From an uncultured Actinomycetes bacterium (GTDB lineage: Bacteria; Chloroflexota; Dormibacteria; Dormibacterales; Dormibacteraceae), in NCBI GenBank assembly GCA_964640005.1, contig CAZXGB010000001.1, positions 103,456 to 167,455 on the forward strand: a stretch of DNA of 64,000 bases. Reading direction: 5' to 3'. Each line of letters begins with the position of its first letter. The first letter of the stretch is position 1. The position numbers and the translations under genes are program-made. Below are positions 13,466-52,550 of this stretch, one piece after another. Under the pieces are notes generated by a model. That model saw only the letters and a program-made list of their open reading frames with translations, had not been told where the DNA came from and ran no database searches.

Positions 13466-13853
13466 GTCCGAACTGTATGGTCCGATCGGAGCGGACCGTA
13501 ATGGGATCGTAGTACTAGGCTCAAGACACGGCGTCAAATCGATTCGGGACCGACCGGCTCCGCGGAAGACCACGCCATGAGGCGGCACCCCGGCTGTGGG
13601 ACCTGTCCCGGTAGCAATGAGGACTGCCTTGGAAATCACAAGGTTTTAGGGCGGTGATTGGGTCCAAACCGGCGGCGTGCGGAGTAAAGGGTCCCGAACT
13701 TACGGAGGGGCGACCCGGGGGCCGGGCCCGGCGGAACACCGCTTTAGCGGCTCCGCGGTCCCGTTCGGGTCAGGCGACCGCTCGCGGCCGCTGCTCCCGG
13801 GGCGGGACATTTGTCTCATTTGAATCGGCCAGGCGACGTGCCATCCTCTCGCC

Positions 13854-14231: not shown

Positions 14232-14371
14232 CTGAGACCGACGGGCCGCGCCGGCGCGTTACGTCTTGACGATGCCTCAAACAGCAAGCGGCGGGCCCGG
14301 CGGCATGGCGGCGTTGTATCGTTCGCGCCAACAGGTGCGACGCGGATCGCGCTGAACCGGAGGGGTTTGGG

Positions 14372-31998: not shown

Positions 31999-32002
31999 GG
32001 CG

Positions 32003-33259: not shown

Positions 33260-34392
33260 GCATCGCGATCGTCGCGAGCGCCCTGGCCAACAAGCCGCGC
33301 AACGGCGGCTTCGCCTGGGTGCCCCTGTCGTATGCCCTCGGTCTGCGCCGCCTTGGATTCGACGTGTACCTGTTCGAGCAGATGCGGACCGAGGGCCCGG
33401 CCGGCCCGGAGTTCTTCCAGGACGTCGCGCGGGATTTCGGCTTCGAAGGGCGCAGTGCGCTGCTGCAGGGTGAGCGGGCCCTCGCGGGGCTCGAGCCTAC
33501 GCGGGTACGTGAGGTCGCCGTGGAGGCCGAGCTCCTGGTCAACGTCAGCGGCCACGCGACGCTCGACTGGATCGTGAACGGGCCGCGGCGGGCGGTGTAC
33601 ATCGACACCGATCCCGGCTTCACGCAGGTCTGGCACCGCGACGGCCTGCTGCACCGCAGCATCGCCGAGCACGACGTCTTCTTCTCGGTCGGCTGCAACC
33701 TCGGCCGCGGCGGCTCGTCCTCGGTGCCAGAGGACGGCGTGGACTGGTGGCCCCTTCCGCCTCCGGTCGTGCTCGACGAATGGCCCGTGGTCGAGGAGCC
33801 GGCCGGTGAGGATGTCCGTTTCACCACCGTGTCCACGTGGCGCTGTCCGTCGGGGACGGTCAGCCTCGACGGAGTGACCGACCTTCCGGCCAAGCATCAC
33901 GAGTTCCGCAAGCTGCGGACGCTCCCGGGGCTGGCGCCCCGGGCGCGCTTCGAGATCGCCCTCGACATCGCGCCCCAGGACGCGGCCGATCGGGACGCGC
34001 TCCTGTCGGGCGGCTGGTCGCTCGTCGACCCGGACGCCGTGGCCGGCGACCCCGCCTCGTTCCGGCGGTACGTCGGAGGGTCGGGTGCGGAGCTCTCGCC
34101 CGTCCAGGGTGTGTACTCCGCGGCGAGAACGGGGTGGATCAGCGATCGCAGCGTCCGCTACCTCGCCAGCGGGCGGCCGGTGCTGGTCCAGGACACGGGC
34201 GTATCGCCCGATATCGCGCGCGGCGAAGGCCTGCTCACCTTCACGGATTTGGCGGAGGCTCGCTCGCAGGCCGAGCGGATCCTGTCCGACTACGGCGCCC
34301 ACGCGGCGGCGGCCCGGGACCTCGCCGAGACCGTCTTCGACTCGGACCGGGTGCTCGGCGAGATGCTCGAGCGGGCGGGCGCGAAGCCGTGA
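33256..34392 (+). CDS. GT-B-fold-like putative glycosyltransferase (unassigned family, CgeB/Glyco_trans_1_2-like C-terminus), paralogue 2
   Basis: GTG 33256 overlaps the upstream stop (GTGA). N-terminus IAIVASAL..GGFAW..LGLRRLGFDV. Conserved blocks VYIDTDPGFTQVW, PPPVVLDEWP, GWISDRSVRYLASGRPVLVQDTG, GEGLLTF, FDSDRVLGEML. Confidence 0.7.
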   Translation: MSIAIVASALANKPRNGGFAWVPLSYALGLRRLGFDVYLFEQMRTEGPAGPEFFQDVARDFGFEGRSALLQGERALAGLEPTRVREVAVEAELLVNVSGHATLDWIVNGPRRAVYIDTDPGFTQVWHRDGLLHRSIAEHDVFFSVGCNLGRGGSSSVPEDGVDWWPLPPPVVLDEWPVVEEPAGEDVRFTTVSTWRCPSGTVSLDGVTDLPAKHHEFRKLRTLPGLAPRARFEIALDIAPQDAADRDALLSGGWSLVDPDAVAGDPASFRRYVGGSGAELSPVQGVYSAARTGWISDRSVRYLASGRPVLVQDTGVSPDIARGEGLLTFTDLAEARSQAERILSDYGAHAAAARDLAETVFDSDRVLGEMLERAGAKP

Positions 34393-35501
34393 GGGAAAGA
34401 AGGGGGACGGTCGCAATCGCCGGCGCGATCGCGCAGCGTCCCGGACGCGGCGGACATGCGTGGGTGTTCCTGCAGCACCTCCTCGGCCTGCGCCGGCTCG
34501 GCTGGGACGTGGTCTTCATCGACCGCGTCGAGCCGGGGATGGCGGCGGACGTCGATTACGTCGCCGCGGTGATGGACGAGTTCGAGATCCCTTATTCGGT
34601 GCTCGACGGCGCCGGCGGCGCGTTCGGCCTCGGCCGCGAGGCGCTCGCGCGCAGGTTGAAGGGCGCCGCCATGCTGGTGAACGTGATGGGCTATCTCGGA
34701 GACGAAGACCTCCTGGCGCTGCCCGAGCGGCGTGTCTTTCTCGACCTCGATCCGGGCTTCACGCAGATGTGGCACGCGCTGGGCCTCGCTCAGATGGTGC
34801 GCGGCCACGACGCGTACGTGACCGTCGGCGAGAACATCGGCCGCGAGGGCTGCGCCATCCCGACCTGCGGCGTGGAGTGGGTCACCACCCCGCCTCCGGT
34901 CGTGCTGGACGAATGGCCGTGGAGCGGCGAGGAGGGGCGCTCGGTCACCGGCATCGGAAGCTGGCGCGGCCCCTACGGGCCGGTCCGCTACGGCGACGTG
35001 GACTACGGCCTGCGCGTGCACGAGTTCAGAGCTTTCGCCGGCGTGCCCGCGCGCTGCGCGGCCCAGGCGTTCGAGTACGCGCTCGACATCGATCCGATGG
35101 AGGTCGCCGACGTCGACCTGCTGACGCGCGGCGGCTGGCGGCTGCTGCCCCCGGACGCGGTCGCGGCCACGCCGAGCCGGTACCGCGAGTTCGTTCAGGG
35201 CTCCATGGCCGAGTTCATGGTGGCGAAGGGCATGTACGTCAAGTCCCGCAGCGGCTGGTTCAGCGACCGCAGCGCGTGCTATCTCGCCAGCGGCAGGCCC
35301 GTCATCGCGCAGGACACCGGCGGCGCAAAGCACGAGGCGGGACTGCTCTCGTTCGCCACCGCGGAAGAGGCGGTCGAGGCGGTCGGCCAGGTGATGGCCG
35401 ACTACCCGCGCCACCGGCGCGCCGCGCGCGATATCGCCGAGGGCTGTTTCGACTCCGACCGCGTGCTCGGGCGGCTCGTCGACCGGGTGCTCGCGGCATG
35501 A
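34389..35501 (+). CDS. GT-B-fold-like putative glycosyltransferase, paralogue 3
   Basis: GTG 34389 overlaps the upstream stop (GTGA). It has the same conserved blocks (FLDLDPGFTQMW, PPPVVLDEWP, SGWFSDRSACYLASGRPVIAQDTG, FDSDRVLGRL). Confidence 0.7.
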   Translation: MRERRGTVAIAGAIAQRPGRGGHAWVFLQHLLGLRRLGWDVVFIDRVEPGMAADVDYVAAVMDEFEIPYSVLDGAGGAFGLGREALARRLKGAAMLVNVMGYLGDEDLLALPERRVFLDLDPGFTQMWHALGLAQMVRGHDAYVTVGENIGREGCAIPTCGVEWVTTPPPVVLDEWPWSGEEGRSVTGIGSWRGPYGPVRYGDVDYGLRVHEFRAFAGVPARCAAQAFEYALDIDPMEVADVDLLTRGGWRLLPPDAVAATPSRYREFVQGSMAEFMVAKGMYVKSRSGWFSDRSACYLASGRPVIAQDTGGAKHEAGLLSFATAEEAVEAVGQVMADYPRHRRAARDIAEGCFDSDRVLGRLVDRVLAA

Positions 35502-36505
35502 ACCCGGCGGTCCGCCGGCGGGTGGCGGCGGCGGTGAGCGACTGGGTGGCAGACGAGCATGGAGCCGCGGTCGAGCGGATGAGGATCACCCGTTCCGCAT
35601 ACGCGAGCAGCGCTTCGATCCTCAACGTGCACCTGACGCTCGCCGGCGGGGAGCGCGTGCGCGCCGTCTACAAGGCGGCCGGCGCGGGCGCGCAGCTGCC
35701 CGCGGCGCGCGGGGTCAAGCCGGAGGCCGTCTGCGACCCGGGCCGCGAGACGTGGGTCTACGAATCGGTGCTCGCCGGCGACGGCGTCGCGGACGCCCCG
35801 CGCCTCCTGTCCTCCGGCACGCTCGCGGACGGCGGGCGCTGGCTGCTGCTCGAGTGGGCCGGCAGCGTGGACCTGGGGCAGGTCGGCGACCGGGCGGTCT
35901 GGAGCGAGGCGGCCGCCCGGCTGGCGCGGATGCACGCCTGGGGCGAGGCGCGGGTCGACGGCCTGGTTCGTGGATCGGCGCTGCGCTGGGACGACCCGGC
36001 CCTGCACCTGATGTGGGCCCGGCGCGCCCGAGACTCCTACGCGGGCGAGAAACGCGATCCGCTGGCCCCGCTCTGGGACCGGTATGCCACCGTCGCCGAA
36101 CGGGTCGCGGCCCTGCCCGGGACGCTCGTCCACGGCGATCTCAACGCGGCCAACGTCCTGGTCACGCGCTCCCCGGCGGGAATGCGCATCCGCTTCATCG
36201 ACTGGGAGACGGCGGGCGTGGGCCCGGGTCTGCTCGACCTCGCCTCGCTGACCAGCGGCAGGCTGCCGGAGAAGCATCGGGCCGCGATGCTGGCCGCGTA
36301 CCGCGCGAACCTGGGCCCGAGCCGGCTGGGCGCGCTGCCCGCCGCCGACTTCGACGAGGCGCTCGCCTGGTGCCGGCTGGCGCTCGCCGTGCAGTGGCTG
36401 GGCTGGTCGCCGGGCTGGTCGCCGCCGCCCGCGCACGCGCACGACTGGCGCGCCGAGGCGCTCGGGCTGGCGCGGAGACTCGGCGTGGTGGAGGTGGCGG
36501 AGTGA
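35498..36505 (+). CDS. APH/choline-kinase-fold small-molecule kinase
   Basis: ATG 35498 overlaps the upstream stop (ATGA). Catalytic loop LVHGDLNAANVLV and FIDWETAGVGPGLLDLA (Brenner/DFG-like) motifs. Confidence 0.8.
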   Translation: MNPAVRRRVAAAVSDWVADEHGAAVERMRITRSAYASSASILNVHLTLAGGERVRAVYKAAGAGAQLPAARGVKPEAVCDPGRETWVYESVLAGDGVADAPRLLSSGTLADGGRWLLLEWAGSVDLGQVGDRAVWSEAAARLARMHAWGEARVDGLVRGSALRWDDPALHLMWARRARDSYAGEKRDPLAPLWDRYATVAERVAALPGTLVHGDLNAANVLVTRSPAGMRIRFIDWETAGVGPGLLDLASLTSGRLPEKHRAAMLAAYRANLGPSRLGALPAADFDEALAWCRLALAVQWLGWSPGWSPPPAHAHDWRAEALGLARRLGVVEVAE

Positions 36506-37323
36506 GCGCGGCCGTGCACCCGCGTTCCTTCCTCTTCGTGACGCTGGACTCCTGCCGCTACGACACGTTCGTGAGCGCCTCGACGCCGGCCTTCGATCGA
36601 GTCGGTGTGACGCATCGCGCGATGGCGCCGGGCAACTACACGTACGCGTCGCACGCGGCGATGTTCGTCGGCTTCACCCCCGGCGTCTTCGAGGTCGACG
36701 AGCCCTTCGTCAACCCGAAGTTCGGGCGCATCTTCAAGATGGCCTATCCGCCGCCGCTGCACACGCGCCGCGATTTCGTCGCGCTCGAGGGCGCCAACAT
36801 CGTCGAGGGCTTCGGCCGGCTCGGCCACACGACGATCGGCACCGGCGCGGTGGGCTGGTTCGACCCCAAGGCGCCCACGGCCCACGTCCTCACCGGCTCG
36901 TTTCAGCGCTACCTCTACCCTGGCAACCCGTGGTCGCTGCGCCGCCAGGTGGCCTTCGTGGAGGAGGAGCTTGACCGCGCCGGCGACGCGCCCGTTCTCG
37001 TGTTCGTCAACGTGGGCGAGACGCACGTCCCCTACTACCACGAGGGCGCGCCGTGGTCGCCCGACGACAACCCGTGCGTCCCGTTCTCCAAGACCAACGA
37101 CGCAGCCGAGTCCCGCCGGCGCCAGACCGCCTGCCTCGAGTGGGTCGACCGGGAGCTCGCGGGGGTCGTGGAGCGCTTCGCCGGGGCGAACGTCCTGATC
37201 TGCGGCGACCACGGGGACGCGTGGGGCGAGGACGGCCTGTGGGAGCACGGAATCCATCATCAGAAGGTGCTCGAGGTGCCGCTTCTGATGAAGCTGTCCA
37301 ACCCTCCGGCGCCGGTCCGGTAG
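36502..37323 (+). CDS. Alkaline-phosphatase-superfamily enzyme (type I phosphodiesterase/phosphotransferase-like)
   Basis: GTG 36502 overlaps the upstream stop (GTGA). FLFVTLDSCRYDTF (metal-site Asp block), NYTYASHAAMFVGFTPG (candidate nucleophile Thr), ICGDHGDAWGEDGLWEHG. Confidence 0.65.
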   Translation: MSAAVHPRSFLFVTLDSCRYDTFVSASTPAFDRVGVTHRAMAPGNYTYASHAAMFVGFTPGVFEVDEPFVNPKFGRIFKMAYPPPLHTRRDFVALEGANIVEGFGRLGHTTIGTGAVGWFDPKAPTAHVLTGSFQRYLYPGNPWSLRRQVAFVEEELDRAGDAPVLVFVNVGETHVPYYHEGAPWSPDDNPCVPFSKTNDAAESRRRQTACLEWVDRELAGVVERFAGANVLICGDHGDAWGEDGLWEHGIHHQKVLEVPLLMKLSNPPAPVR

Positions 37324-37382: not shown

Positions 37383-39119
37383 GTGGGCGGGGACTTGGAT
37401 CCGCCGGCGCACGTCCTCCGGGGTGAGCCCCTTCCGGACGGGGCAGAGGCGTCGCTCCTGGACGCGATCGACCGCCACGCGGTCGAGATGCCGGAGCGAA
37501 GGGCGCTCGAGCTTCCCGAGCAGGGCATGACCATCTCGTGGCGGGAGCTCCGGCAGAGATCGCTCGAGGTCGCGGCGGCGCTGCGGGACTCCGGCGTGCG
37601 CCGCGGCGAGCTGGTGGGCCTGATGCTGCGGAACGACGAGCTGTTCGTGCCCGGGCTCCTCGGCATCCTCCATCTGGGCGCCGTCGCGGCGCCGATGCCG
37701 ATTCCGGGCGCGTTCGCGGACGTCGAGGTGTACGCCGAGCACATCCGCGGGATGATCGCGGCGGCCGGCCTGCGCCACGTGCTGCACGACTCGTCGCTGC
37801 CGAGCGAGCACACGCAGGCCGCGGTGCGCGGCAGCGCCGAGATCACGTGGATCGACGGCTCACCCCGGCGGCCGGAGCGCGAGTTCGAGCCCCGCGAGCG
37901 TCCGGCGCCCGGCGACCTGGCGCTCGTCTCCTACACCTCCGGCAGCACGTCCGCCCCGAAGGGGGTCGAGCTGACCCACGCCAACGTGTCGACGGCGATC
38001 AGCGCCTTCGGCGTGGCGACCGGCCTCGGCCCGGACGACGCGTGGGGCGTGTGGACCCCGCTCTTCCACGACTTCGCCCTGATCTCGATGCTCACCGCCC
38101 TGGTCTTCGGAGCCGCGGTCTGGATCTGGTCGCCCACGCGGTTCATCCGCAACCCCGGGCGCTGGCTCGCCGAGTTCGGGCGCGGCGGCTGCACGCACTA
38201 CTCGGGCCCGAACTTCAGCTTCGATCTGATGCGCGACTCGGCCACGGACGAGGGCCTCGCGGGCGTCAGCCTCGCCGCCTGGAGGGTGGCGGTCAGCGGC
38301 GGGGAGCCCGTGAGCGCCGCCACCGTGAGTCGCTTCACCGAACGCTTCGCCCCCTACGGCGTGCGCCCGGAGACGATCGTGCCCGGATACGGCCTCGCCG
38401 AAGCCACCCTGGCCGTCTCGGTGCCGGCTCGGAACACGCGGCCGCGCGTGGTCACCGTCAGCCGCGAGGGCCTGACGGAGCGGCGGCGCGTGGAGCACGT
38501 CGAGCCAGGAGATCCCGGAGCCCGCGCCCTCGTCTCGGTCGGCAGGGCCGCGCCCGGGATCGAGGTGCGCATCGTGGACGGTCTGCGTCAGGACCTCCCC
38601 GACGGCCATGTGGGCGAGATCGAGGTCCGCGGCCCCTCGGTCACGCGCGGCTACCGCGGGCACCCGGACGCGGCCCCTGACGGCTGGTTCAAGACCGGGG
38701 ACCTGGGCTTTGTCGAGGACGGAGGACTCTTCATCTGCGGCCGGATCAAGGACGTGGTCAACGTGCGCGGGACCAAGTACCACCCCGAAGACCTCGAGCC
38801 GATCGCCGGCGAGGTGGAAGGGGTGCGCAAGGGCCGCTGCTGCGTCGTGGGCGAGGGCGAGACGCATGAGCGCATGGCGGTCATCGCCGAGACGCGCCTG
38901 CGTGGGGAGGACCTGGGTCGCCTCCGGACCGAGATCGAGGAACGCCTCACGCGCCGGCTGGGCATCGGGGACATCAGGGTGTACCTGGTCGAGCCCCGCA
39001 CGATCCAGGTGACGAGCAACGGCAAGGTGCGGCGCCAGCTCATGCGGCGCCGGCTCGAGAGCGGCGAGCTGGCCGACCTGGAGAGCGTGGCCCGCGAGGC
39101 TGAGGTCCCGGTCGCATGA
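37383..39119 (+). CDS. Fatty-acyl-AMP/CoA ligase (adenylate-forming enzyme)
   Basis: Motifs VSYTSGSTSAPKGVELTH, PLFHDF, YGLAEATL, FKTGDLGF, GRIKDVVNVRGTKYHPEDLE and a terminal SNGKVRR. The start is uncertain (GTG 37383). Confidence 0.85.
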   Translation: MGGDLDPPAHVLRGEPLPDGAEASLLDAIDRHAVEMPERRALELPEQGMTISWRELRQRSLEVAAALRDSGVRRGELVGLMLRNDELFVPGLLGILHLGAVAAPMPIPGAFADVEVYAEHIRGMIAAAGLRHVLHDSSLPSEHTQAAVRGSAEITWIDGSPRRPEREFEPRERPAPGDLALVSYTSGSTSAPKGVELTHANVSTAISAFGVATGLGPDDAWGVWTPLFHDFALISMLTALVFGAAVWIWSPTRFIRNPGRWLAEFGRGGCTHYSGPNFSFDLMRDSATDEGLAGVSLAAWRVAVSGGEPVSAATVSRFTERFAPYGVRPETIVPGYGLAEATLAVSVPARNTRPRVVTVSREGLTERRRVEHVEPGDPGARALVSVGRAAPGIEVRIVDGLRQDLPDGHVGEIEVRGPSVTRGYRGHPDAAPDGWFKTGDLGFVEDGGLFICGRIKDVVNVRGTKYHPEDLEPIAGEVEGVRKGRCCVVGEGETHERMAVIAETRLRGEDLGRLRTEIEERLTRRLGIGDIRVYLVEPRTIQVTSNGKVRRQLMRRRLESGELADLESVAREAEVPVA

Positions 39120-39772
39120 GGCGTGCCCTGGCCCGTCTTCTGCTCGCGTCCGCGAGCGCGGCCGTGCTCGGCGCCTGTGGTGGCGCCCAGCCCGGTGCTC
39201 CGGACTTCCGGCAGGCCTTTGGCGTGATCGACGCTCCTTGCGCCGCCGGGCTCGCGCCGTCGACGGCCGTGCAGCATTGCGTCGCGCACGTGGTGCTGCA
39301 GGACGCGGGCGGTGAGGGAATCGGGCACGCCACCCTCCAGGTCCCGCTGAAGGCCGCCAGGACGGGCTCGCCCCTGGCCCCCGCCGTCTGCGGGATGGCC
39401 ATCCCCGACACTCCCGCGGGCGGCTACTCCGACCTCGTGTGCAACTTCGACGTGCCGCCTGGCGACACCATCGCCGGCTTTCCCGTCATCGGGTCCATCG
39501 ACTACGCGACGGGCAGCACGCGCACCTCCGCCGGGTTCGACTTCGGGGGCGCCGGCTCTCTGATTCTGGCCGCGGCCACGCTGCTGCTCGCGCTGGCGCT
39601 GCTGCTCGCGGCGCCCTGGCGGCGGGGCACGCCCGCGGTCCTTCTCGCTCCGGCCGCCTCGGCAGACGAGCTCGGGCCCGACCGGTCGCCCGAGTCCCGG
39701 CCGGCGCCGCGTGTGATGGAACGGAGGCGCGACGTGGACGCCGAGTACGACCTTCCCTCGATTCCCCGCTGA
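39116..39772 (+). CDS. Cys-rich lipoprotein with C-terminal TM anchor (paralogue A)
   Basis: ATG 39116 overlaps the upstream stop (ATGA). Lipobox AAVLGAC. Conserved HCVAHVVLQDAGGEGIGHATLQVPL...CGMAIPDT...DLVCNFDVPPG, then the hydrophobic segment LILAAATLLLALALLLAAPW and a charged tail. Confidence 0.7.
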   Translation: MRRALARLLLASASAAVLGACGGAQPGAPDFRQAFGVIDAPCAAGLAPSTAVQHCVAHVVLQDAGGEGIGHATLQVPLKAARTGSPLAPAVCGMAIPDTPAGGYSDLVCNFDVPPGDTIAGFPVIGSIDYATGSTRTSAGFDFGGAGSLILAAATLLLALALLLAAPWRRGTPAVLLAPAASADELGPDRSPESRPAPRVMERRRDVDAEYDLPSIPR

Positions 39773-39773
39773 G

Positions 39774-41498
39774 GTGGCGTTGGGAGAACCGGCCGCGACC
39801 CTGACCGGCGCGAGGCCTGAGATCGACGCCGGCTTCGAGGTCGAGGCGGGCGAGGAGCGCGTGGCCTGGTGGAGGAGGGTGTCGCCGTGCAGGGGGGCCG
39901 AGATCCTGGTGGCTGTCGTATCGGCGGCGATCGCCGTGGCTTGGATCCTGGTGGACCGCACGACTCCGCCGTGGGACGAGGCCCGGTACCTGCTTGACAC
40001 GCTCCAGTGGGTCCAGGCGCTTCACTCCGGCGGCCTTGGCGGCCTGGTCAACGCCTTCTTCACCGTGGACACGGCCTACGGCCCGGGCTATCTGGCGGCG
40101 GTGTTTCCGATCTTCCTCGCCTTCGGCCCTTCGGACCAGGGCGCGCTGGCCGCGAACGTGGTGCTGTGGATCGTGCTGCTTCTGTCCGTCGGCTCCATCG
40201 CGAGGCAGCTGTTCGGCCCGGTCGCCGGCCCGGTCGCGATGGCCGTGACGGCCATCAGCCCCATCCTTCTCTGGCTCCTCCATCACGCGCTCGTGGACCT
40301 CGGGGCCGCCACGTGGACCTGCCTCTCGGTCGTGGCAATGCTGCGGAGCCGGCACTTCACCCGCCCGCTGCCGGCGGCGCTCGCCGGCCTCTGCGCAGGC
40401 GTGGGCCTGCTGACGAAGGTCAGCGTCGTGATCTTCCTGGCGGGACCTGCCCTGGTGATCGGGGTTCGGGCGCTGGTCCGGCTGCGCAGCGCGTCGACCG
40501 CGAAGCGGTGGCGGGTCATGGGAAACCTGGCGCTGGCCCTCGCGACCCTGCTCGCCGTGGCCGGGCCCTGGTACCTGACCAACCTGCAGAGCACGATCGG
40601 CTACATCCATTCGGCCGCGTTCGGCGTCGGCGCCGCCGGCACCGGCCCGGCCAACCCGCTGGCCCCCTCGGCGATCGCGCAGGTGATCCTGATGATCGTG
40701 AGCGATACCCCCTGGATCGTCGTCGCGGCGAGCCTGCTGCTGGCCGCCCTCCTGGTGTGGGAGCGCCGGGGGGCGAAGAGCGTGAGCAGGCCGGGCCGGG
40801 TCTGGTCGTGGCTGGTCCTGCTCGCGATGGCGGGGCTGCCGGTGGCCGCGGTCGCCACCTCACAGGACCAGGCTTCGCGGTACGCGGCCGTCACCTTCCC
40901 GGCGCTGGCGATCATCTTCGCCGCGCTCGTCGCCACCACGCGACGGCGCCCCGTCCAGGTGGCGGCCGTGGCGGCGGTGCTGGCGTTCGGCGTGGCGCAG
41001 ATCGCGGTGTCGCAGATGCCGATCGGCAACTCCTATCAGCGCGGCAAGCTCGTCTGGGTGAGGCACGGCTGGTATGGCATGGACTTCTTCGGCCCGGCCT
41101 ACCCGTACGCGAACTCAGCGGGCGACGACGGGACTCCGATCATGGCCGCGCTCGAGTCGGTGGCCAAAGCCCGCCCGCTTCGCGTGATGATCGCCCAGGA
41201 CGACCACACCACGAACCTGAACACCCTCAGGTGGCTGTCGGCGACGCGGCACGACGACTTCACCTTCGAGCTGCCGCCTGTGGTGGTCGCGGACCCAGCA
41301 CAGCTGAGCACGTACGACGTCGCGCTCTACATTCCGAGCGCCGAGGTCGTGCGGCGCAACAACACCGCGCGAGCGGACATCCTGAACGCCGAGACGCCCT
41401 CGACGGTCTTTGGAGCCCAGCTCTTCACGATCTTCGCCCACGCCCGCCACGAGGTGAGGCTGCCCGGCGGCACGACGGCCTGGGTTCTGGAGCGCTGA
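39774..41498 (+). CDS. GT-C-fold glycosyltransferase (ArnT/PMT_2-like, polyprenyl-phosphate-sugar dependent)
   Basis: At least 10 TM segments. A first-loop acidic motif TPPWDEARYL follows TM1, and there is a C-terminal soluble domain. GTG 39774 is the start. Confidence 0.75.
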   Translation: MALGEPAATLTGARPEIDAGFEVEAGEERVAWWRRVSPCRGAEILVAVVSAAIAVAWILVDRTTPPWDEARYLLDTLQWVQALHSGGLGGLVNAFFTVDTAYGPGYLAAVFPIFLAFGPSDQGALAANVVLWIVLLLSVGSIARQLFGPVAGPVAMAVTAISPILLWLLHHALVDLGAATWTCLSVVAMLRSRHFTRPLPAALAGLCAGVGLLTKVSVVIFLAGPALVIGVRALVRLRSASTAKRWRVMGNLALALATLLAVAGPWYLTNLQSTIGYIHSAAFGVGAAGTGPANPLAPSAIAQVILMIVSDTPWIVVAASLLLAALLVWERRGAKSVSRPGRVWSWLVLLAMAGLPVAAVATSQDQASRYAAVTFPALAIIFAALVATTRRRPVQVAAVAAVLAFGVAQIAVSQMPIGNSYQRGKLVWVRHGWYGMDFFGPAYPYANSAGDDGTPIMAALESVAKARPLRVMIAQDDHTTNLNTLRWLSATRHDDFTFELPPVVVADPAQLSTYDVALYIPSAEVVRRNNTARADILNAETPSTVFGAQLFTIFAHARHEVRLPGGTTAWVLER

Positions 41499-41512
41499 AC
41501 CCTAGGGCTTCG

Positions 41513-42130
41513 TCACCAGGTGCCGTCGTCGTCGCGCCGGTCGTCGGGCGATTCGCCCGCCTCCTGTCCTTCGACCGCGGAGGAGCCCCGCTCCGGGCCT
41601 GACGATGACGGCGCGAGCCGCCCGGCTGCCGCCGCGCCCAGCGTCACCAGGGCGAGGACGGCCGCGACCAGGGCCAGCGCGAAGGTCCCCATGCCGCCGC
41701 CGGCACTCGACGACCCGCCCGCGGCGGCGGCGGAGAAGTCGACCGCCTGCAGGATCGGGACCGAGGCGACCGTCTTGCCCGCGGGCAGGTCGAAGTCGCA
41801 TGTCAGGTCGACCCCGCCACCCCCGGCCGTGTCTGGGATCGAGCGTCCACACGTCGCGGCCGAGGCCGTTCGGGCCGAGGTGGCCGCGCTGGAATCCCTG
41901 AGCGGAACGACGATCGTGGCGTGGCCGATCCCCTCGCCGCCGTGGTTGACCAGCAGCACGTGAGCGGTGCAGTGCGTCGCGGCCCCGGTCGCCCCGACGC
42001 CGCAGGGCCGGTCGACGGTGCCGTACGCCTGCACGAATTCGGGCGGCCCCTGCAGCGACCCGCCACACGCGGCGGCCAGGGGCAGCAGCAACAATGCGAC
42101 CGCCGGGACCCGGCGGAGAGGCCTCAGCAC
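41513..42130 (-). CDS. Cys-rich lipoprotein with C-terminal TM anchor (paralogue B)
   Basis: GTG 42130 overlaps the stop of 42124-43296 by 7 nt. Lipobox LPLAAAC. It has the same HCTAHVLLVNHGGEGIGHATIVVPL...CGRSIPDT...DLTCDFDLPAG core, a TM segment and an acidic tail. Confidence 0.7.
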   Translation of the reverse strand: MLRPLRRVPAVALLLLPLAAACGGSLQGPPEFVQAYGTVDRPCGVGATGAATHCTAHVLLVNHGGEGIGHATIVVPLRDSSAATSARTASAATCGRSIPDTAGGGGVDLTCDFDLPAGKTVASVPILQAVDFSAAAAGGSSSAGGGMGTFALALVAAVLALVTLGAAAAGRLAPSSSGPERGSSAVEGQEAGESPDDRRDDDGTW

Positions 42131-43296
42131 CGCGCCACCTCCCTGGTGAACGCCGCGTCGAGCATCTCTCCCAGGACCCTGTCCGAGTCCAGGTGCTCCA
42201 CGGCGATCGCTCGCGCCGCGGCCGAGTGGCGCGCATAGTCCGAGTTGACGGCGGCGATGCACTCCGCGGCTCCCTCGGCGTCCTCGAAAGCCAGCAGGCC
42301 CTCGCCCACGGGCAGATGGCGCTCGAAGCCGGTCGACGCGGTGACCACCGGCCGGCCGGCTGCCAGGTAGCAGGCGCTCCGGTCGCTGAACCAGCCGGAG
42401 CGCGAGTCGACATAGCCGCTTTTTGGGATCCCGATCTCGGCCCGCGACGAGCTGACGAAGTCCCGGTACGAAGAGGTGTCGAACGCAACCGACGCGGGTG
42501 AGATGATGCGCCACCCGCTCGCGGCCAGCGCCTCCAGGTCGGGCGTCTCTTCGGCGTGGATGGCCAGGGCCAGGAGCAGCGGCTGGGACGTGAGACTCGG
42601 GAGCGCCATCAGCCTGCGCATCGTGTGCACGCGCTGTCCGTAGCGCAGGCCCGCGTGCTCGATCGAGCCGTAGCCGCGCCAGTGTCCGACGGTCGTCATC
42701 TCGGGCCGCGCCTCGGCCGGAGCGGCAGGCCACTGCTCGAGCACGACCGGCGGTGCGATCTTGATCCAGTCCAGGCCGCAGGTGGGGATGGAGCACCCGG
42801 CCTCGCCGATCCCCCGCCCCACGGTCACGAAGCGGTCGTGGCGGCCGAGGCCCATGTCGATTCCCACGGCCGAGTGCCACAGCTGCGTGAAGGCCGGGTC
42901 GAGGTCGACATAGACACGGAGCCGGGGAGTCCCGAGGAGCGTCTCTTCCGTCAGGACGCCGGAGAGGTTGAGGAGCAGGTCGGCGCCGCCGCTGAAGCGT
43001 CGGAGCTCCGATGGCGGGACGCCCGCGCTGGAGCCGCCGCCGCGCTCGAGCAGCGTCCACGAGTAGTCCAGGCCGAACTCAGCCATGGTCGCCGCCAGGT
43101 AGGCGGCGTTTTCAGAGACCTCCAGCGCCGCGCCCGCCGGGCGCAGCGACCGGCGGTCGAGCGTCTCCACGAAGTGCACCTTCCAGCCCAGGCGCCGCAG
43201 CCCGAGCAGGAACTGCAGCACCGCCCATGTCGCGCCACCCTGGTGGGGCTCCGCGCAGATCATGCCGCTGACCAGTGCCCGTCCGGCGGAGGTCAT
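42124..43296 (-). CDS. GT-B-fold-like putative glycosyltransferase, paralogue 4
   Basis: GGATWAVLQFLLGLRRLGWKV, VYVDLDPAFTQLW, APPVVLEQWP, SGWFSDRSACYLAAGRPVV, GEGLLAF, LDSDRVLGEML. Confidence 0.7.
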   Translation of the reverse strand: MTSAGRALVSGMICAEPHQGGATWAVLQFLLGLRRLGWKVHFVETLDRRSLRPAGAALEVSENAAYLAATMAEFGLDYSWTLLERGGGSSAGVPPSELRRFSGGADLLLNLSGVLTEETLLGTPRLRVYVDLDPAFTQLWHSAVGIDMGLGRHDRFVTVGRGIGEAGCSIPTCGLDWIKIAPPVVLEQWPAAPAEARPEMTTVGHWRGYGSIEHAGLRYGQRVHTMRRLMALPSLTSQPLLLALAIHAEETPDLEALAASGWRIISPASVAFDTSSYRDFVSSSRAEIGIPKSGYVDSRSGWFSDRSACYLAAGRPVVTASTGFERHLPVGEGLLAFEDAEGAAECIAAVNSDYARHSAAARAIAVEHLDSDRVLGEMLDAAFTREVARC

Positions 43297-43297
43297 A

Positions 43298-43561
43298 TCA
43301 GAGTGCCCTTGCGGCGGCCAGCTTCGTGGTCACGAAGCGGGTGATGGCCGCGACGCTTTCGAAGTTCGTCCAGGTGAGCTCCTCGTCGGGCACCTCGATG
43401 TGAAAGGTCTGCTCGAGGAAGGCGACCAGCGTGAACACGCCCACCGAGTCGAGGATGCCGGCCCTGACCAGCGACCCCGTGTCCGTCAGCTCGAGGTGAC
43501 GCTTGTCCGCCGGACGCGTGGCCAGGATATGGGCGCGGACCTGCTCGGAGATCGAGGTCAT
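43298..43561 (-). CDS. Acyl carrier protein
   Basis: 87 aa. The phosphopantetheine site context is GILDSVGVFTLVAFLE. ATG 43561 overlaps the upstream stop (ATGA). Confidence 0.8.
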   Translation of the reverse strand: MTSISEQVRAHILATRPADKRHLELTDTGSLVRAGILDSVGVFTLVAFLEQTFHIEVPDEELTWTNFESVAAITRFVTTKLAAARAL

Positions 43562-45177
43562 GGCGCCACGCCGTCCAGCCACCGGAGGACGATGTCGACG
43601 GTCGCCTCCTGTCCCGACACCGTCATGTAGCCGTGGATCCGCTCGTCGGTCAGCGTCTCGGTCACGCGGTCGCCCGCGGCCTTCAACATCGCCCCGAGGT
43701 CGCCCTCCATGGCCGCCGTGTACGAACGAAAGCCCTCGTCGTGCACCCCGTAGGCGATCAGCAGCGGCGTCCTCGACCGCGCCACGCGGTCGAACGCGGC
43801 GCGCATCCGCGGGTGCACCGGGCTCAGCGCGTCGCACGGCTCGCCGCCGGCCTCCTCCGCCTCGAAGCGTTCCGCCACCGGCGGCGCGAGCAGAACCAGG
43901 CCGGTGAGCTCGGGCGCGTGGTCGGCGGTGTTGAGAGCGGCCACCGCGCCCTGGCAGGACCCGATCGTGAGCACACGGGAGAGGCCGCGGGCGCACAGCC
44001 ACGCGTAGGCGGCCCGGGCGGCCGCGAAGACCGCGAGCTTGGAGGGCTCGTCGATGGGGTCGGTCGGTTCGGGCCCTGGGCTGTCGCCTCGCCCGGGATG
44101 GTCGACCTGGAGGACGTGGTAGCCGCGCGAGGCCAGGCGCCGCGCCAGCGTCGTCGCCACCTGGTTGCGCCCGAAGGCGGGCATTCCGCCGCCGCCCCAC
44201 AGCAGCAGCGCCGCTTCGCCGCGCGGCGGCCCGGACGGAGGCGTCAGCAGGGCGAACACCTCAACGCCCTCAGCCGCGATGAAGGTGCATTCTGCGCTGC
44301 CGGCCTCCGGAGCCCCGCCGACCGGCACGGGATCCTCCGAGCGCGGCAGCCACGGTGAAATCACACCGGCCAGGCCCTCCGCCAGGGCGGGGGAGTCGGC
44401 CTGCTGGGTGCGATGAAACCACCATCCCTCGGCGACTCCGACCGACGCCGTCGTCACGCTGCCTTCGAGCGTGGCCAGCTCGCGGGGCAGCCCGCTGCCG
44501 ATCGCCAGGACACGCCTGCCCGCTCCGGCCGCGACCACGTCGCCGAGGAGCAGGCCGCGAAGCGAGGCGGCCAGCCGCTCGTGGAGTGAGTATCCGAGCA
44601 GGTCCACGCGGCCTTCACGGCGGAGCTCCTCGTCCAGCTCGGCGGCGGTAGGCGGCCGCCTCCGCAGCTGTCCGCCGTCGGCGATCATGCGCGCGCGGAA
44701 ACCCTCGCGCACGAACGCGGCACCGTCGACCACCGGCTCCCACAGCACCAGCGGCAGGCCTTCGGCGGCCGCGGCGGCCACGAGCGCGCCGCACCTGGTG
44801 CCGCCGACCGTCACCGGCGCGTCAGTGGCAGACCGCGCGGCGCGCACGACCGCCTGCGCGTCCGCGACCAGCGTGGCGAACGAGACGCCGGCGGGCGAGC
44901 CCGCGCTGTAGCCCGTGCCCGCGTAGTGGAAGCGCCAGACCGCCACCCCGCGGCGGGCAAGGGCGGCTGCGGCCAGCACCTCGCGCCTGTAGCTGAAGGG
45001 GTGGTCGGCGAGCAGCGGCGGGCACATCACCAGGGTCGCCGTCGCGCCGGTCGAGGGGGCGTGGACGGTGTGGAAGAGGTCGCCTGAGGGGCCGGGCAGG
45101 AACCCGACCCGCTGCTCGACCTCGGCCTCCGCGACCTCGACGGCCGGCGCCGGCCCGGTCCGGGTGACGGGGGTCAC
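43558..45177 (-). CDS. Fused tandem alpha/beta-hydrolase-fold protein (N-half hydr2_PEP-like, C-half hydr1_PEP-like)
   Basis: GTG 45177 overlaps the upstream stop (GTGA). N-half: TVGGTRCGALVAAAAA...LVLWEPVVDGAAFVREGFRARM. C-half: VLQVDHPGRGDSPG...LTIGSCQGAVAAL...GLVLLAPPV, a GxCxG elbow. Confidence 0.7.
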   Translation of the reverse strand: MTPVTRTGPAPAVEVAEAEVEQRVGFLPGPSGDLFHTVHAPSTGATATLVMCPPLLADHPFSYRREVLAAAALARRGVAVWRFHYAGTGYSAGSPAGVSFATLVADAQAVVRAARSATDAPVTVGGTRCGALVAAAAAEGLPLVLWEPVVDGAAFVREGFRARMIADGGQLRRRPPTAAELDEELRREGRVDLLGYSLHERLAASLRGLLLGDVVAAGAGRRVLAIGSGLPRELATLEGSVTTASVGVAEGWWFHRTQQADSPALAEGLAGVISPWLPRSEDPVPVGGAPEAGSAECTFIAAEGVEVFALLTPPSGPPRGEAALLLWGGGGMPAFGRNQVATTLARRLASRGYHVLQVDHPGRGDSPGPEPTDPIDEPSKLAVFAAARAAYAWLCARGLSRVLTIGSCQGAVAALNTADHAPELTGLVLLAPPVAERFEAEEAGGEPCDALSPVHPRMRAAFDRVARSRTPLLIAYGVHDEGFRSYTAAMEGDLGAMLKAAGDRVTETLTDERIHGYMTVSGQEATVDIVLRWLDGVAP

Positions 45178-47105
45178 GAGCCCGACGAGGTTCCGGCCGC
45201 GACCAGGTCCCCGAGCTTGCGCGGGCGGACCGCCGGCTTCGGCGCGCGCGCGATCAGCGCGACGTCGGGACCGCCGAGGGCCTCGAGCCGCGTCCCCCAC
45301 AGGTGCGTGTGGAACCAGCGGTTGAACGCGTCGTGCAGGCGGCGGCGCTCCGGGTCGTAGGACGAGGCTTCGAGGTGATAGAGCGCCACGTCGGCGAAGT
45401 ACCAGTTCTGGCGCCCCGCCTCGAGCAGGCGCAGGCACAGGTCCGAGTCCTCGAAATCACCCTGCACGTAGTCGCCGGACAGGCCGCCGAGCCGCTGATA
45501 GAGCTCGGTCGCGATCATCATGCAGGCGCCGGTGACCGCGGGGACGGGGCGCGACACGGCCGCCGCCGGCAGGTCGCGGTGCATGCCCTTGAAGAAGTGC
45601 TCGTTGTTCCAGGGCAGCGTGTCGCTCAGCCGCTCGAAGAACATCCCCGCGTGCTGCAGCGTGTCGTCCTCGTAGAGCAGCTTCGGGCCGATCGCGCCCG
45701 GGCTGGCGAGCCCGTCGTAGAACCGCGCCATCGCGCCCAGCCAGCCGGGCTTGTCGGGAAAGACGTCCGAGTTCATCAGGAGGAGCAGCCGGCCTCGGGC
45801 GATCGAGGCTCCGAGGTTGTTCGCGCCCGCGAAGCCGACGTTCGCGGAGAGGATCGCGACCCGGAAGGGCTGGCCGTAGAGGGGGAAGAGGCGGCGGGCG
45901 CTGTCGAGCAGCTCGTCCTCGAGCTCCGGCGAGTCGAGCACGTAGATCAGCTCCGCCGACCGCATCTCGGGGTCCCCGGCAAACTGCGTCAGCTGGTGCT
46001 CGATGAGGTCGATTCGGCGGTAGAGCGGGACCACCACCGAAACCGCCGGAGACGCGATCGGAGGCCCGAACTGCTTGACCGTCTCGATCGCGGCCGCCCG
46101 CTGCCTCGCCCGCTGCAGCCGCCTGATGGCTGGAACGATCTGGCCGGTGCGCAGCGTCGAGGCCGGCAGGCGCTCGGCGACGAGGTCTTCGAGGACGATC
46201 CGCACCACGTCGGACGCGCTGGTCGAAACCTTCGGCGCGCCCACCTCGAGGAGTGCGCCCGCCCTTGTCTCGAGCTCGACCAGCCATCCCTCCGGCCGGG
46301 CGCTGGGCGCGCAGCTGACGAAGGCGGCGAAACCCTTCCACGCGCTGTCCTGGGCCTCGCGCGAGGGCGCGAGGTCGTACCAGTAGGCGCGCTCGAGGAT
46401 CTCGACCCGGCTGCCCTCCGGTGACACCACCGTCACCCGGAGCGGGCGCGAGCTCCCGGGCCGGATCCGGCCGCGGATGAAAAAGGCATCGCGGTCGAGC
46501 CTCGCCACCGCGTCGACCAGGGCCATCGGTCCGCCCGGGGCCAGCGTCACGGGGAGCCGCTCCCGCAGCGCTTCCCGCAACGCATGGAGCGAGGCGCTCA
46601 AGCGGACCTCGCGCTCGGTCCCGAACAGCGAGCCTCGATCGTCACGCCGGCGGGGTGCGGGTTCGGGCCCGGAGGCACCCTCGACGAGAAACTCGAGGAC
46701 CGCGGCCCTGGTCTCCGGCGCCATCCACGCCAGGCTTTCGCGGGCCAGATCCTGCTCGGTTCCCAGCACCCTTTTCACCGCCGAGGCGGCGACCGTCCCG
46801 GACGGGGATCCCGCGGTCGACAGGGTCGCGGGCAGGTCGCCGTCACACAGGCGCCAGTGCACCAGGACGCGGGCGATACCGGCGACCGACTCGCCGCGCC
46901 GGAAGGGCAGGACCATGAACCGCGGCCCATCGGGGCCGGAGTCAGACCGGGCCGCGGCGCTCGCCACCTGGGCCGGCAGGCGTCCGGTCAGCAGGAGATC
47001 CGAATCGCTGAGCCAGGCCGCGATTTCGGGCTCGAGCTCCGCGTGCACCCTGGCCCGGATCCCGGCGCGGGCCGCCGGCCTGGTCGTGGCCGTCCGCCGC
47101 TTCAT
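45174..47105 (-). CDS. GT2 glycosyltransferase with ~330-aa N-terminal domain of unknown function
   Basis: ATG 47105 overlaps the upstream stop (ATGA). GT2 blocks VSVVVPLYRR, YVLDSPE, NVGFAGANN, LMNSDVFP, FEDSDLCLRL. Confidence 0.8.
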   Translation of the reverse strand: MKRRTATTRPAARAGIRARVHAELEPEIAAWLSDSDLLLTGRLPAQVASAAARSDSGPDGPRFMVLPFRRGESVAGIARVLVHWRLCDGDLPATLSTAGSPSGTVAASAVKRVLGTEQDLARESLAWMAPETRAAVLEFLVEGASGPEPAPRRRDDRGSLFGTEREVRLSASLHALREALRERLPVTLAPGGPMALVDAVARLDRDAFFIRGRIRPGSSRPLRVTVVSPEGSRVEILERAYWYDLAPSREAQDSAWKGFAAFVSCAPSARPEGWLVELETRAGALLEVGAPKVSTSASDVVRIVLEDLVAERLPASTLRTGQIVPAIRRLQRARQRAAAIETVKQFGPPIASPAVSVVVPLYRRIDLIEHQLTQFAGDPEMRSAELIYVLDSPELEDELLDSARRLFPLYGQPFRVAILSANVGFAGANNLGASIARGRLLLLMNSDVFPDKPGWLGAMARFYDGLASPGAIGPKLLYEDDTLQHAGMFFERLSDTLPWNNEHFFKGMHRDLPAAAVSRPVPAVTGACMMIATELYQRLGGLSGDYVQGDFEDSDLCLRLLEAGRQNWYFADVALYHLEASSYDPERRRLHDAFNRWFHTHLWGTRLEALGGPDVALIARAPKPAVRPRKLGDLVAAGTSSGS

Positions 47106-48412
47106 GCCGGAACCCTGGAGGCGAGCCCTGCGTACAGCTCCCGCAGCCGAGCCGCGTGGTGGTCCATCGAGTAGTCGGGTGGAGGCGCGGTCCGCAGCTT
47201 CTCCCACAGCTCCTTGTCGCCCGCCGCGCGGGCCATCACGTCGGCGAGGCTCCGCGCGCTGCCGGCGCGGAAGTGCAGCCCGTTGACGCCGTCCGTCACC
47301 TTCTCGGCCATGCCGCCGATGTCGCTGCAGATCACCGGCCGTCCGTACATGAAGGCCTCCTGGATGACCAGGGGGGAATTCTCCCACCAGATCGACGGCA
47401 CGACGACCCAGTCGACGTCGGCCATGATCTCGCGCAGGTCCTTGGGCGCGTACCGGCCGACCAGCGTCACGTTCGTCGCCTTGTCGAGCAGGTCCTTGAG
47501 CTCGCGCTGGAACTCTCCGCGCTGGATGTCGAGATTCGCCCCATGCAGGTACAGGTGCGGCTTCGGGTCGGCCCCGCGACGCGGCGCCTTGCGTGACGAG
47601 CCGTCATCCTCGCCCTCGTCGGCCAGCAGCGACATGGCGCGGACGGCGAGGTCGACGCCCTTGTACCTGCTCAGCTGGCCGAGGAACGCGAAGCGGTCGG
47701 GGAAGTGGCGCCGCGAGCCGCCGACGCGAGCCGGGATCGAGAGCCGCCCGTACTCCTCGACCTGGATCTTGGCCGGGTCGACGCCCCAGTCCACGTAGCG
47801 GTCGCGCAGAAACTTGCTCGGGGCGATGAACCGGTCGACCAGCGACATCTGGGACTGGATGAACCGGCGGCGGATGAAGAAGGTCTGAGGCGCGATCTGC
47901 GGGAAGCACTCGTGGCAGCGCTGAGGCGACGCCTCGAGGCAGGGCTTTTCGTCGACGGTGCGGACCATCTGCCCGTCGCGATGGCAGATGGGCAGGTACT
48001 CGTGCAGCGTGTACAGGATTCCGGCGTTCGGGGCGGCCTGGCGGACCGCCCGGATCAGGTCGTAGCCCATGAACTGCGTGTGCTGGAAGTGGACGATGTC
48101 CGGGGCGAACGCTTTGACGAAGCCGGCGATGTGGCGGGTCAGGAACTCCTTGTCGCTGACCGTGCCGTAGACCCAGTCGTAGTGATAGCCGGTGGTGTGG
48201 ACGAAGTACTGGCCCGAGTCCTCCCCGACCAGCGAGAACAGGGTACCCGGCCGCGGCCCGTATCCAGTGTCTCCGGCGCGGCAGACCAACGCGGCTTCGA
48301 CGCCGCTCTGGCCGCGCATCGACCGGTAGAGCTCGTAGGCATACTGCTCGGCGCCTCCGGGGCGGACCGTGGGATGCCCGTGCGCGAAGTACAGGACGCG
48401 GAGCTGGCTCAC
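47102..48412 (-). CDS. GT4-family (GT-B) glycosyltransferase
   Basis: GTG 48412 overlaps the upstream stop (GTGA). LRVLYFAHGHPTVRPGGAEQY, FLGQLSRYKG, PSIWWENSPLVIQEAFMYGRPVICSDIGGMAEKV (EX7E region). Confidence 0.85.
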   Translation of the reverse strand: MSQLRVLYFAHGHPTVRPGGAEQYAYELYRSMRGQSGVEAALVCRAGDTGYGPRPGTLFSLVGEDSGQYFVHTTGYHYDWVYGTVSDKEFLTRHIAGFVKAFAPDIVHFQHTQFMGYDLIRAVRQAAPNAGILYTLHEYLPICHRDGQMVRTVDEKPCLEASPQRCHECFPQIAPQTFFIRRRFIQSQMSLVDRFIAPSKFLRDRYVDWGVDPAKIQVEEYGRLSIPARVGGSRRHFPDRFAFLGQLSRYKGVDLAVRAMSLLADEGEDDGSSRKAPRRGADPKPHLYLHGANLDIQRGEFQRELKDLLDKATNVTLVGRYAPKDLREIMADVDWVVVPSIWWENSPLVIQEAFMYGRPVICSDIGGMAEKVTDGVNGLHFRAGSARSLADVMARAAGDKELWEKLRTAPPPDYSMDHHAARLRELYAGLASRVPA

Positions 48413-52548: not shown

Positions 52549-52550
52549 CC

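Follow-up and report, generated by a model that had tools for sequence, protein, structure and literature searches.

Introduction

The exosortase A (XrtA)/PEP-CTERM systems come with a set of genes that is known from family annotation only. It comprises two alpha/beta-hydrolases, hydr1 (TIGR03100) and hydr2 (TIGR03101), an adenylate-forming ligase (TIGR03098) with a carrier protein, and a pyridoxal-phosphate (PLP)-dependent decarboxylase. For the hydr1/hydr2, ligase and carrier genes of exosortase systems, the available annotation goes no further than hypothetical equivalogs. These genes are not mentioned in the founding PEP-CTERM paper (PMC1569441), and in our literature search TIGR03100 is cited by one paper only, as annotation. 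Here we analyse a related set of genes in a 64,000-nucleotide stretch of an uncultured member of the Dormibacteraceae (Chloroflexota; assembly GCA_964640005.1, contig CAZXGB010000001.1, positions 103,456 to 167,455); this whole stretch is called the window below. The set encodes a 539-residue protein with fused hydr2-like and hydr1-like halves, an acyl carrier protein (ACP) and a fatty acyl-AMP ligase (FAAL), and it is surrounded by a cluster of glycosyltransferase genes. We propose, with a probability of about one half, that these proteins form a cytoplasmic, carrier-dependent relay for acyl transfer, by which the glycan or glycolipid made by this cluster is decorated.

Several described systems bear comparison with such a relay. 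In the Dlt system, the ligase DltA and the carrier DltC act with the transferases DltB and DltD to give D-alanylated teichoic acids. Dlt transfer runs via a membrane MBOAT protein and an extracytoplasmic SGNH-type protein. In the biosynthesis of clorobiocin and coumermycin, CloN7 and CouN7 transfer a carrier-bound pyrrole-2-carboxyl group to a sugar hydroxyl (PMC11218499, PMC8748450). SyrC, CmaE and CysB are free-standing acyl shuttles that take acyl groups from carrier-protein thioesters (PMC7966384, PMC10956176). The ornithine-lipid pathway of OlsH and OlsI includes an O-acyltransferase with alpha/beta-hydrolase fold, namely OlsI (PMC12493201).

Results

Genes were called by third-position G+C in the window, which has a G+C content of about 70%, and independent calls on two identical Logan contigs agree. 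The acyl genes lie where the initial annotation of this DNA had placed them. The FAAL gene is found at 37383-39119 on the plus strand (578 residues), the ACP gene at 43298-43561 on the minus strand (87 residues) and the gene for the fused hydrolase at 43558-45177 on the minus strand (539 residues). They are part of two convergent operons, one on the minus strand and one on the plus strand. Reading the junctions from the sequence, we find the previously noted ATGA overlap between hydrolase and ACP at 43561-43558, so that the ACP indeed follows the hydrolase with translational coupling, and a GTGA overlap at 45177-45174 that joins the upstream family 2 glycosyltransferase (GT2) gene to the hydrolase. 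No signal peptide and no transmembrane segment is present in the hydrolase, the ACP, the FAAL or the 390-residue GT-B-fold glycosyltransferase encoded behind the ACP. The acyl step would therefore be cytoplasmic and take place before export.

Both halves of the fused hydrolase have specific best matches in NCBIfam. The N-terminal half (residues 1-290, 44308-45177, minus strand) matches TIGR03101 hydr2_PEP over residues 24-213 with 112.8 bits (E = 2e-32), covering profile positions 2-196 of 266. The C-terminal half (residues 291-539, 43558-44307, minus strand) matches TIGR03100 hydr1_PEP over residues 302-436 with 62.2 bits (E = 4.8e-17), and PF12146 with 56.6 bits. The protein matches four NCBIfam models in all, of which the third-ranked reaches only E = 8.6e-06, so that the hydr models lead by more than 10 orders of magnitude. 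The initial annotation had read the halves in this same order, hydr2-like then hydr1-like, and had allowed for the case that neither would match these families; both matches are significant. Generic hydrolases placed here by chance were considered and rejected on the basis of the specific best matches, of fusions to ACP and of conserved synteny.

The curated cutoffs of these families are 202.75 bits for TIGR03101 and 168.45 bits for TIGR03100. Comparison with these trusted cutoffs, as suggested in the initial annotation, places both halves below them, at about half of the required score or less. The 539-residue protein is therefore a relative of the two families and not a member. The same holds for ten sampled relatives, none of which reaches the TIGR cutoffs. 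The relatives appear to represent a broad sister group to the XrtA-linked equivalogs. A tblastn search against annotated plasmids gave no match for bona fide XrtA-linked hydr1/hydr2 genes.

These scores bear on whether the locus is a true exosortase-A-type module, with the exosortase, the PEP-CTERM proteins and the PLP-dependent decarboxylase encoded elsewhere in the genome. The best NCBIfam matches of both halves are XrtA-associated models, the family 4 glycosyltransferase (GT4) of the cluster weakly matches the XrtA-associated stp3 and stp2 models, and the cluster contains a gene related to Wzy_C and O-antigen ligases. However, both halves score far below the XrtA-linked families, the ligase is a FAAL for which TIGR03098 does not appear among the 25 best models, and the Wzy_C/TPR protein matches no NCBIfam model and hence no XrtA-associated one. 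Among the predicted genes of the window, Pfam and NCBIfam models detected no exosortase and no PLP-dependent decarboxylase, as the initial annotation had stated, and likewise no GNAT and no PEP-CTERM protein. Where gene tables of related loci were read, the 10-kb flanks likewise contained no exosortase, PEP-CTERM or decarboxylase gene. The window does contain a sortase gene. We consider a complete exosortase-A-type module with distant parts quite unlikely. The label given to the locus in the initial annotation is better replaced by that of a homologous but distinct variant, as both halves lie below the cutoffs, the ligase is a FAAL and the Wzy_C protein lacks an XrtA-associated model.

To assign catalytic residues, we read conservation from 16 aligned close relatives and from 150 representatives of an exhaustive profile search, which returned 12,278 matches at E ≤ 1e-3 and 627 at E ≤ 1e-30. 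The Cys noted earlier at the nucleophile elbow of the C-terminal half is Cys408 (codon 43954-43956) within the motif GSCQG. Together with Asp480 (43738-43740) and His515 (43633-43635) it forms a candidate triad, and all three residues are invariant among the 16 close relatives. In distant hydr1-like domains the elbow Cys is kept in 30 of 31 sequences, and where their region can be aligned, the Asp and the His are conserved as well. In the AlphaFold (AF2) model of the fusion (pLDDT 83.7, pTM 0.87), Cys408 follows strand b5 (401-407), Asp480 follows b7 (472-477) and His515 follows b8 (505-510), which are the canonical positions of the triad. Conservation and predicted topology thus point to a C-terminal half that is a catalytically competent-looking alpha/beta-hydrolase with a putative Cys-Asp-His triad.

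An alpha/beta-hydrolase fold with a complete triad would also fit a thioesterase. The hydr1-like half could hydrolyse the acyl-ACP made by the FAAL, either as an editing enzyme similar to type II thioesterases or to release a fatty acid, possibly after modification. The nearest structures are esterases and lipases, and the NCBIfam family itself carries the name hydrolase. Yet it would be futile to activate a free fatty acid at the expense of ATP and then hydrolyse it, except where the ACP-bound chain is modified in between, and no acyl-modifying enzyme is encoded in the cluster of the window. The exchange of Ser for Cys in all but one of the 31 relatives also argues against simple hydrolysis. 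Cys nucleophiles are characteristically found in trans-thioesterifying shuttles, among them SyrC and CmaE, which reportedly have an alpha/beta-hydrolase fold with an active-site Cys. In addition, the conserved placement among glycosyltransferases favours a glycan acceptor. The thioesterase function therefore appears doubtful to us.

The same residues are reminiscent of polyhydroxyalkanoate (PHA) synthases, where class III and IV enzymes provide an analogy for a Cys-Asp-His enzyme with a partner subunit. Polymerisation of ACP-bound acyl or hydroxyacyl units, with the hydr2-like half as a partner similar to PhaE or PhaR, would be in line with the G-x-C-x-G lipase box, the triad, the fold and an obligate partner. 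No likeness to PhaC is seen in Pfam or NCBIfam, however, and hydroxyacyl-forming enzymes, phasins and depolymerases are missing. The context is one of glycan biosynthesis throughout, and the probable cargo at one related locus, the pyrrole-2-carboxyl group discussed below for L008, is not polymerisable. We regard a PHA-type polymerase as highly improbable.

For the N-terminal half, the initial annotation had pointed to the motif GGTRCGA. The motif is present, but it places Arg128 (codon 44794-44796) at the nucleophile position and not the adjacent Cys129, which is variable among relatives. The elbow has the form G-T-R-x-G. Arg128 follows strand b5 (122-127) in the AF2 model and aligns with the catalytic Ser of the S33-type hydrolases PDB 9w30 and 7q4h, and the elbow Arg is present in 126 of 132 distant hydr2-like domains. 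Cys129 was considered as nucleophile of this half and rejected, because its position is taken by C, L, F, V, A or G among relatives. Strand b8 is not followed by a conserved His, and a WW motif occupies the site of the His loop. Lacking both the Ser and the His of a triad, the N-terminal half is apparently inactive, and we assume that the hydr2-like half is probably a non-hydrolytic partner or docking domain. Besides the elbow, the arginines R64, R82, R157 and R161 are conserved. Cys52 (45022-45024), which is part of a CPP motif at the usual position of the oxyanion hole, shows the same degree of conservation as the elbow Arg (126 of 132 distant domains).

The ligase matches PF00501 with 222.7 bits. 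Its best NCBIfam matches are PRK07768 (330 bits), the FAAL model PRK09192 (309 bits) and MbtM (287 bits), the latter two below their own cutoffs. The nearest PDB entries are all FAALs, namely 3PBK (202 bits), FadD32, FadD23, FadD28 and the loading FAALs of polyketide synthases. The alignment with 3PBK contains no gap across residues ~350-380, where we take the FAAL-specific insertion to be located. FAALs load carrier proteins rather than CoA. By class the ligase is a fatty acyl-AMP ligase, and loading of a carrier protein is predicted from this assignment. TIGR03098, with a cutoff of 592.35 bits, is absent from the 25 best models of the ligase, which extend down to a score of 109 bits. The L008 ligase served as a positive control and reaches 325.7 bits on TIGR03098.

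The ACP is a member of PF00550 (25.0 bits, cutoff 20.8). Its phosphopantetheine site is Asp38-Ser39 (Ser codon 43445-43447), and the Asp-Ser motif is invariant in the aligned ACP orthologues, among them the ACP of L008 and three hydrolase-fused copies. The best NCBIfam match of the ACP is ACP_for_OlsHI with 42.6 bits, and relatives score 49-52 bits. This match leads to a further explanation, in which the locus makes a phosphorus-free acylated membrane lipid, an aminolipid or glycolipid, for phosphate limitation. The Cys-hydrolase would then act in the manner of the alpha/beta-hydrolase O-acyltransferase OlsI (PMC12493201), and the MsbA-like exporter would flip the lipid. A pst-type transporter beside the cluster in five loci, the 404-bit match of the exporter to MsbA and the presence of sulfotransferases are consistent with this. 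On the other hand, the ACP remains far under the cutoff of 130 bits, neither a GH3-like OlsH nor another N-acyltransferase is found, and none of the four NCBIfam models matched by the hydrolase is related to ornithine-lipid synthesis. The adjacency of the pst genes is perhaps plain synteny, and most genes of the cluster are glycosyltransferases. A dedicated membrane lipid is unlikely in our view.

The proposed acyl-transfer relay draws further support from the distribution of its parts. Close fused relatives are rare: about 20 were found among 5.8 billion sequences, and a word-indexed protein search with diverse alignment returned the same 19 close relatives only. A scan of GTDB gave a single locus in a metagenome-assembled genome of Candidatus Solibacter (L003), and a metagenome scan gave four loci. 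In four relatives (P0016, P0017, P0018 and P0021) the ACP is fused to the C-terminus, resulting in the order hydr2-hydr1-ACP. Across the wider superfamily, the halves are encoded by separate neighbouring genes or combined in other fusions of about 600 residues and in reversed hydr1-hydr2 fusions (P0024, P0031). The fusion described in the initial annotation is therefore real but not unique to this locus. A carrier protein is adjacent or fused to the hydr pair wherever a 3' flank exists. The fusions, which occur in both orders and with the ACP, argue for joint action of the two hydrolases and the carrier protein as a single unit.

The ligase is linked to this unit by synteny. A FAAL gene directly downstream of the triple fusion occurs in two acidobacterial-type loci. 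In L004, the FAAL orthologue (55% identity) begins 4 nt inside the end of the triple fusion and is followed by the orthologue of the 390-residue protein (63% identity). L003 and L012 show the same order, and the FAAL orthologues of the three loci are 55-56% identical. In all six loci with enough flank, a FAAL orthologue (55-71% identity) lies within about 6 kb of the hydr fusion. The initial annotation had counted the acyl-AMP ligase from the facing operon to the same functional set. This is borne out by the orthologues placed directly after the triple fusion; the TIGR03098 type implied for the ligase is not, as it is a FAAL. A GT-B orthologue with 63-65% identity follows the ACP or the FAAL in L003, L004, L011 and L012, and the upstream order sulfotransferase-unknown-GT4-GT2 is repeated on the P0009 contig and in L004, L010 and L013.

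L008 shows what happens when the activating enzyme differs. At this distant locus P0024, a fusion of reversed order, belongs to a different polysaccharide cluster, whose other genes encode GT4s, a GT2, sulfotransferases, an asparagine synthase and a polysaccharide deacetylase. Its ACP belongs to the same subfamily as the window ACP (41% identity). The ligase is of the amino-acid-adenylation type (TIGR01733 397 bits, above cutoff; TIGR03098 326 bits), and a PigA/RedW-type L-prolyl-carrier-protein dehydrogenase is encoded directly upstream (413 and 406 bits). Dehydrogenase, ACP and ligase surround the reversed fusion at 8859-14982 of this locus. An adenylating ligase, a carrier and a prolyl-carrier-protein dehydrogenase constitute the known route to pyrrole-2-carboxyl-S-carrier protein, which suggests that the L008 glycan is decorated with pyrrole-2-carboxyl. 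Since hydr pair and carrier are constant while the ligase is either a FAAL or of the amino-acid type, the activating enzyme and hence the cargo is exchangeable. The hydr pair and the ACP are thus the constant transfer device, and the adenylating enzyme and the acyl group swap between lineages. This combination of a constant pair and a changing cargo is what a device for general acyl transfer would be expected to show; a hydrolase dedicated to a single substrate would not.

The glycan-building genes next to the acyl genes occur without them elsewhere. The 390-residue protein (42124-43296, minus strand) matches PF13524 with 26.9 bits, and its AF2 model (pLDDT 92.1) shows a GT-B fold. Foldseek retrieves retaining GT4 enzymes (tll1591, 7qsg, BshA, HepE and PimB') with template modelling scores of 0.55-0.62 and 10-15% identity, so that we describe it as a GT4-like glycosyltransferase. 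A role as acyl-handling enzyme was rejected due to this fold and because the family occurs elsewhere without acyl genes. The family has more than 7,000 database matches, nearly all named 'hypothetical protein', and four paralogues in the window: 42124-43296 on the minus strand, and 33256-34392, 34464-35501 and the C-terminal ~380 residues of 28486-31998 on the plus strand. The latter gene encodes an ABC exporter with the GT-B domain at its C-terminus and matches MsbA_lipidA with 404 bits (cutoff 602).

In the distant genomes of L005, L006 and L007 the GT-B family lies beside an APH-type kinase, and two of these loci also have YdjC; in L005 and L006 the family is further accompanied by GT2s, sulfotransferases and an unknown protein of about 384 residues. 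FAAL, ACP, hydr pair, STM4013-family and lipobox proteins were not found in L005-L007. As these loci keep the core of GT-B and APH genes without the acyl genes, the acyl module is an accessory decoration step. Together with the STM4013-family and lipobox proteins, it forms an accessory set added to a widespread core of glycan-building genes.

The STM4013/SEN3800-family protein of the alkaline-phosphatase superfamily (36502-37323, plus strand, 273 residues) matches NF038075 with 139 bits (cutoff 250) and PF00884 weakly. It is the best conserved protein of the accessory set, with 74-78% identity in L003, L004, L010 and L012, and it is absent from L005-L007. The lipobox protein lipoA (39116-39772, plus strand) has counterparts in L003, L004, L010 and L012. 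For the adjacent GT-C-like membrane protein (39774-41498, plus strand; about 10 hydrophobic segments, weak PF13231 PMT_2), a partial counterpart with 29% identity is seen in L003 and L012 and none was detected in L004 and L010. On the P0009 contig, the positions of lipoA and the GT-C-like gene are filled by genes for 183 and 587 residues without Pfam matches. A second lipobox protein (41513-42130, minus strand), encoded by the last gene of the minus-strand operon, is a paralogue of lipoA with 48% identity over 113 residues (E = 1e-31). Each of the two paralogues has a C-terminal hydrophobic segment, and they flank the GT-C-like protein where the operons converge.

The minus-strand operon runs from a sulfotransferase gene (49152-50198, Pfam) through genes for a 240-residue unknown protein (48409-49131, from gene calling), GT4 (47102-48412, Pfam), GT2 (45174-47105, Pfam), the hydrolase, the ACP and the 390-residue GT-B protein to the second lipobox protein. 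The sulfotransferase and 240-residue genes are separated by 20 nt, all junctions from the latter through GT4, GT2 and hydrolase to the ACP are 4-nt overlaps, a 1-nt spacer separates the ACP from the GT-B gene, and the GT-B and lipobox genes overlap by 7 nt. In the plus-strand operon, a GT2 gene, the exporter-GT-B fusion, another GT2, two GT-B paralogues and an APH-type kinase (together 26057-36505) are followed by the STM4013-family, FAAL, lipobox and GT-C-like genes. The FAAL gene overlaps lipoA by 4 nt, and 1 nt separates lipoA from the GT-C-like gene.

A pst-type phosphate ABC transporter is encoded at 50561-54950 on the plus strand, with two permeases, an ATPase and a 515-residue PBP_like_2 protein. 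It flanks the cluster in the window, on the P0009 contig and in L004, L010 and L013, with 67-83% identity. This neighbourhood may reflect a link to phosphate limitation or plain synteny. Downstream, a 668-residue protein with a neocarzinostatin-family domain and an overlapping sortase gene (54943-57776, plus strand) are followed by an SGNH-like (58282-59070) and a GSCFA-family protein (59063-60124). Upstream of the cluster lie a 2,010-residue protein with 14 PKD domains (6503-12535, minus strand) and two large GH5 (cellulase-family) proteins (1424-4123 and 16670-19207, minus strand), separated from the cluster by NarL-type two-component genes.

Discussion

The relay that we propose would begin with the FAAL, which, as in its family, would adenylate a fatty acid and load it onto the phosphopantetheine arm at Ser39 of the ACP. 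The acyl-S-ACP would dock on the hydrolase, where Cys408, activated by His515 and Asp480, would take over the acyl group as a thioester. The final acceptor would be a sugar intermediate provided by the GT2, GT4 and GT-B enzymes, acylated on a hydroxyl or amine, as suggested by the position of the genes in the operon. Transfer would precede export by the MsbA-like ABC exporter. The hydr2-like half is probably an obligate partner with a docking role, in which its conserved arginines would bind the ACP or an anionic acceptor.

Several observations weigh against this relay. The conserved Cys52 and the arginine cluster indicate that the hydr2-like half may be more than a mere scaffold. A Foldseek search of the hydrolase against the PDB, which contains no solved structure for any hydr1 or hydr2 family member, yields only generic esterases with 13-20% identity. 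Enzymes with a Cys nucleophile can also be hydrolytic; dienelactone hydrolase is an example. In L010 (11575-12500), the ACP gene is directly followed by a lipobox gene and not by an orthologue of the 390-residue GT-B protein; coupling of ACP and GT-B is therefore frequent but not universal. No phosphopantetheinyl transferase is encoded in the 64-kb window, and our literature search found no experimental study of the set of hydr1/hydr2, ligase and carrier.

The hydr1/hydr2 pair with carrier and adenylating ligase in polysaccharide loci is known from annotation, and the locus described here shares with the XrtA set the hydr2- and hydr1-related halves, the carrier protein with an adenylate-forming ligase and the polysaccharide cluster. 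It differs in that the halves are fused and score below the family cutoffs and that the ligase is a FAAL instead of the TIGR03098 type, which resembles adenylation domains. There is also no link to an exosortase within the window: decarboxylase, exosortase and PEP-CTERM genes are all absent from the 64 kb, and the Wzy_C protein is without an XrtA-linked model.

With CloN7 and CouN7, which act with CloN3, CloN4 and CloN5 on the 3'-OH of a deoxysugar, the relay would have the logic in common, leading from an adenylating enzyme via a carrier and an acyltransferase to a sugar hydroxyl. The prolyl-carrier-protein dehydrogenase of L008, which is of the PigA/RedW/CloN3 type, adds to this likeness. 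CouN7 is a single-subunit enzyme with a Ser nucleophile. In contrast, the locus in the window combines a Cys nucleophile with an Arg-elbow partner domain, and its cargo is probably a fatty acid. The similarity to SyrC, CmaE and CysB is mechanistic only, since they shuttle between two carrier proteins in non-ribosomal peptide synthetase lines, whereas here there is one carrier protein in a context of glycan synthesis. OlsI shares the alpha/beta-hydrolase fold, and the window ACP is nearest to the OlsHI-associated ACP model; the sub-cutoff ACP score, the missing gene for a GH3-like OlsH and the hydrolase without a match to an ornithine-lipid model set the locus apart from that pathway. As in the Dlt system, a dedicated adenylating enzyme is paired with a small carrier, and in Dlt an envelope glycopolymer is esterified. 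The ACPs match DltC models weakly.

What the comparison adds to a module so far known from annotation is the distinction between a catalytic and a non-catalytic half, Rosetta-stone fusions and a swappable activating enzyme, which together give a testable mechanism. We tentatively extend this to the family as a whole, although we hold the general case to be somewhat less probable than even. The hydr1/hydr2 pair would then represent an unrecognised class of soluble, carrier-dependent glycan or glycolipid acyltransferase, in which a Cys-Asp-His hydrolase and an Arg-elbow pseudo-hydrolase work as heterodimer or fusion and the cargo is set by an exchangeable adenylating enzyme.

If this is true, the long-uncharacterised genes associated with exosortase A would gain a function. 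Polysaccharides would have a further acylation route beside the systems of membrane acyltransferases (AT3, MBOAT) with SGNH proteins and the soluble hexapeptide-repeat acetyltransferases. The cargo would be a fatty acid supplied via the FAAL here, pyrrole-2-carboxyl or amino acids elsewhere, and the XrtA systems would carry a cargo of their own. Three genes would provide a compact toolkit that acylates sugars from free acids, and poorly studied soil bacteria would be expected to make fatty-acylated and possibly sulfated glycans or glycolipids.

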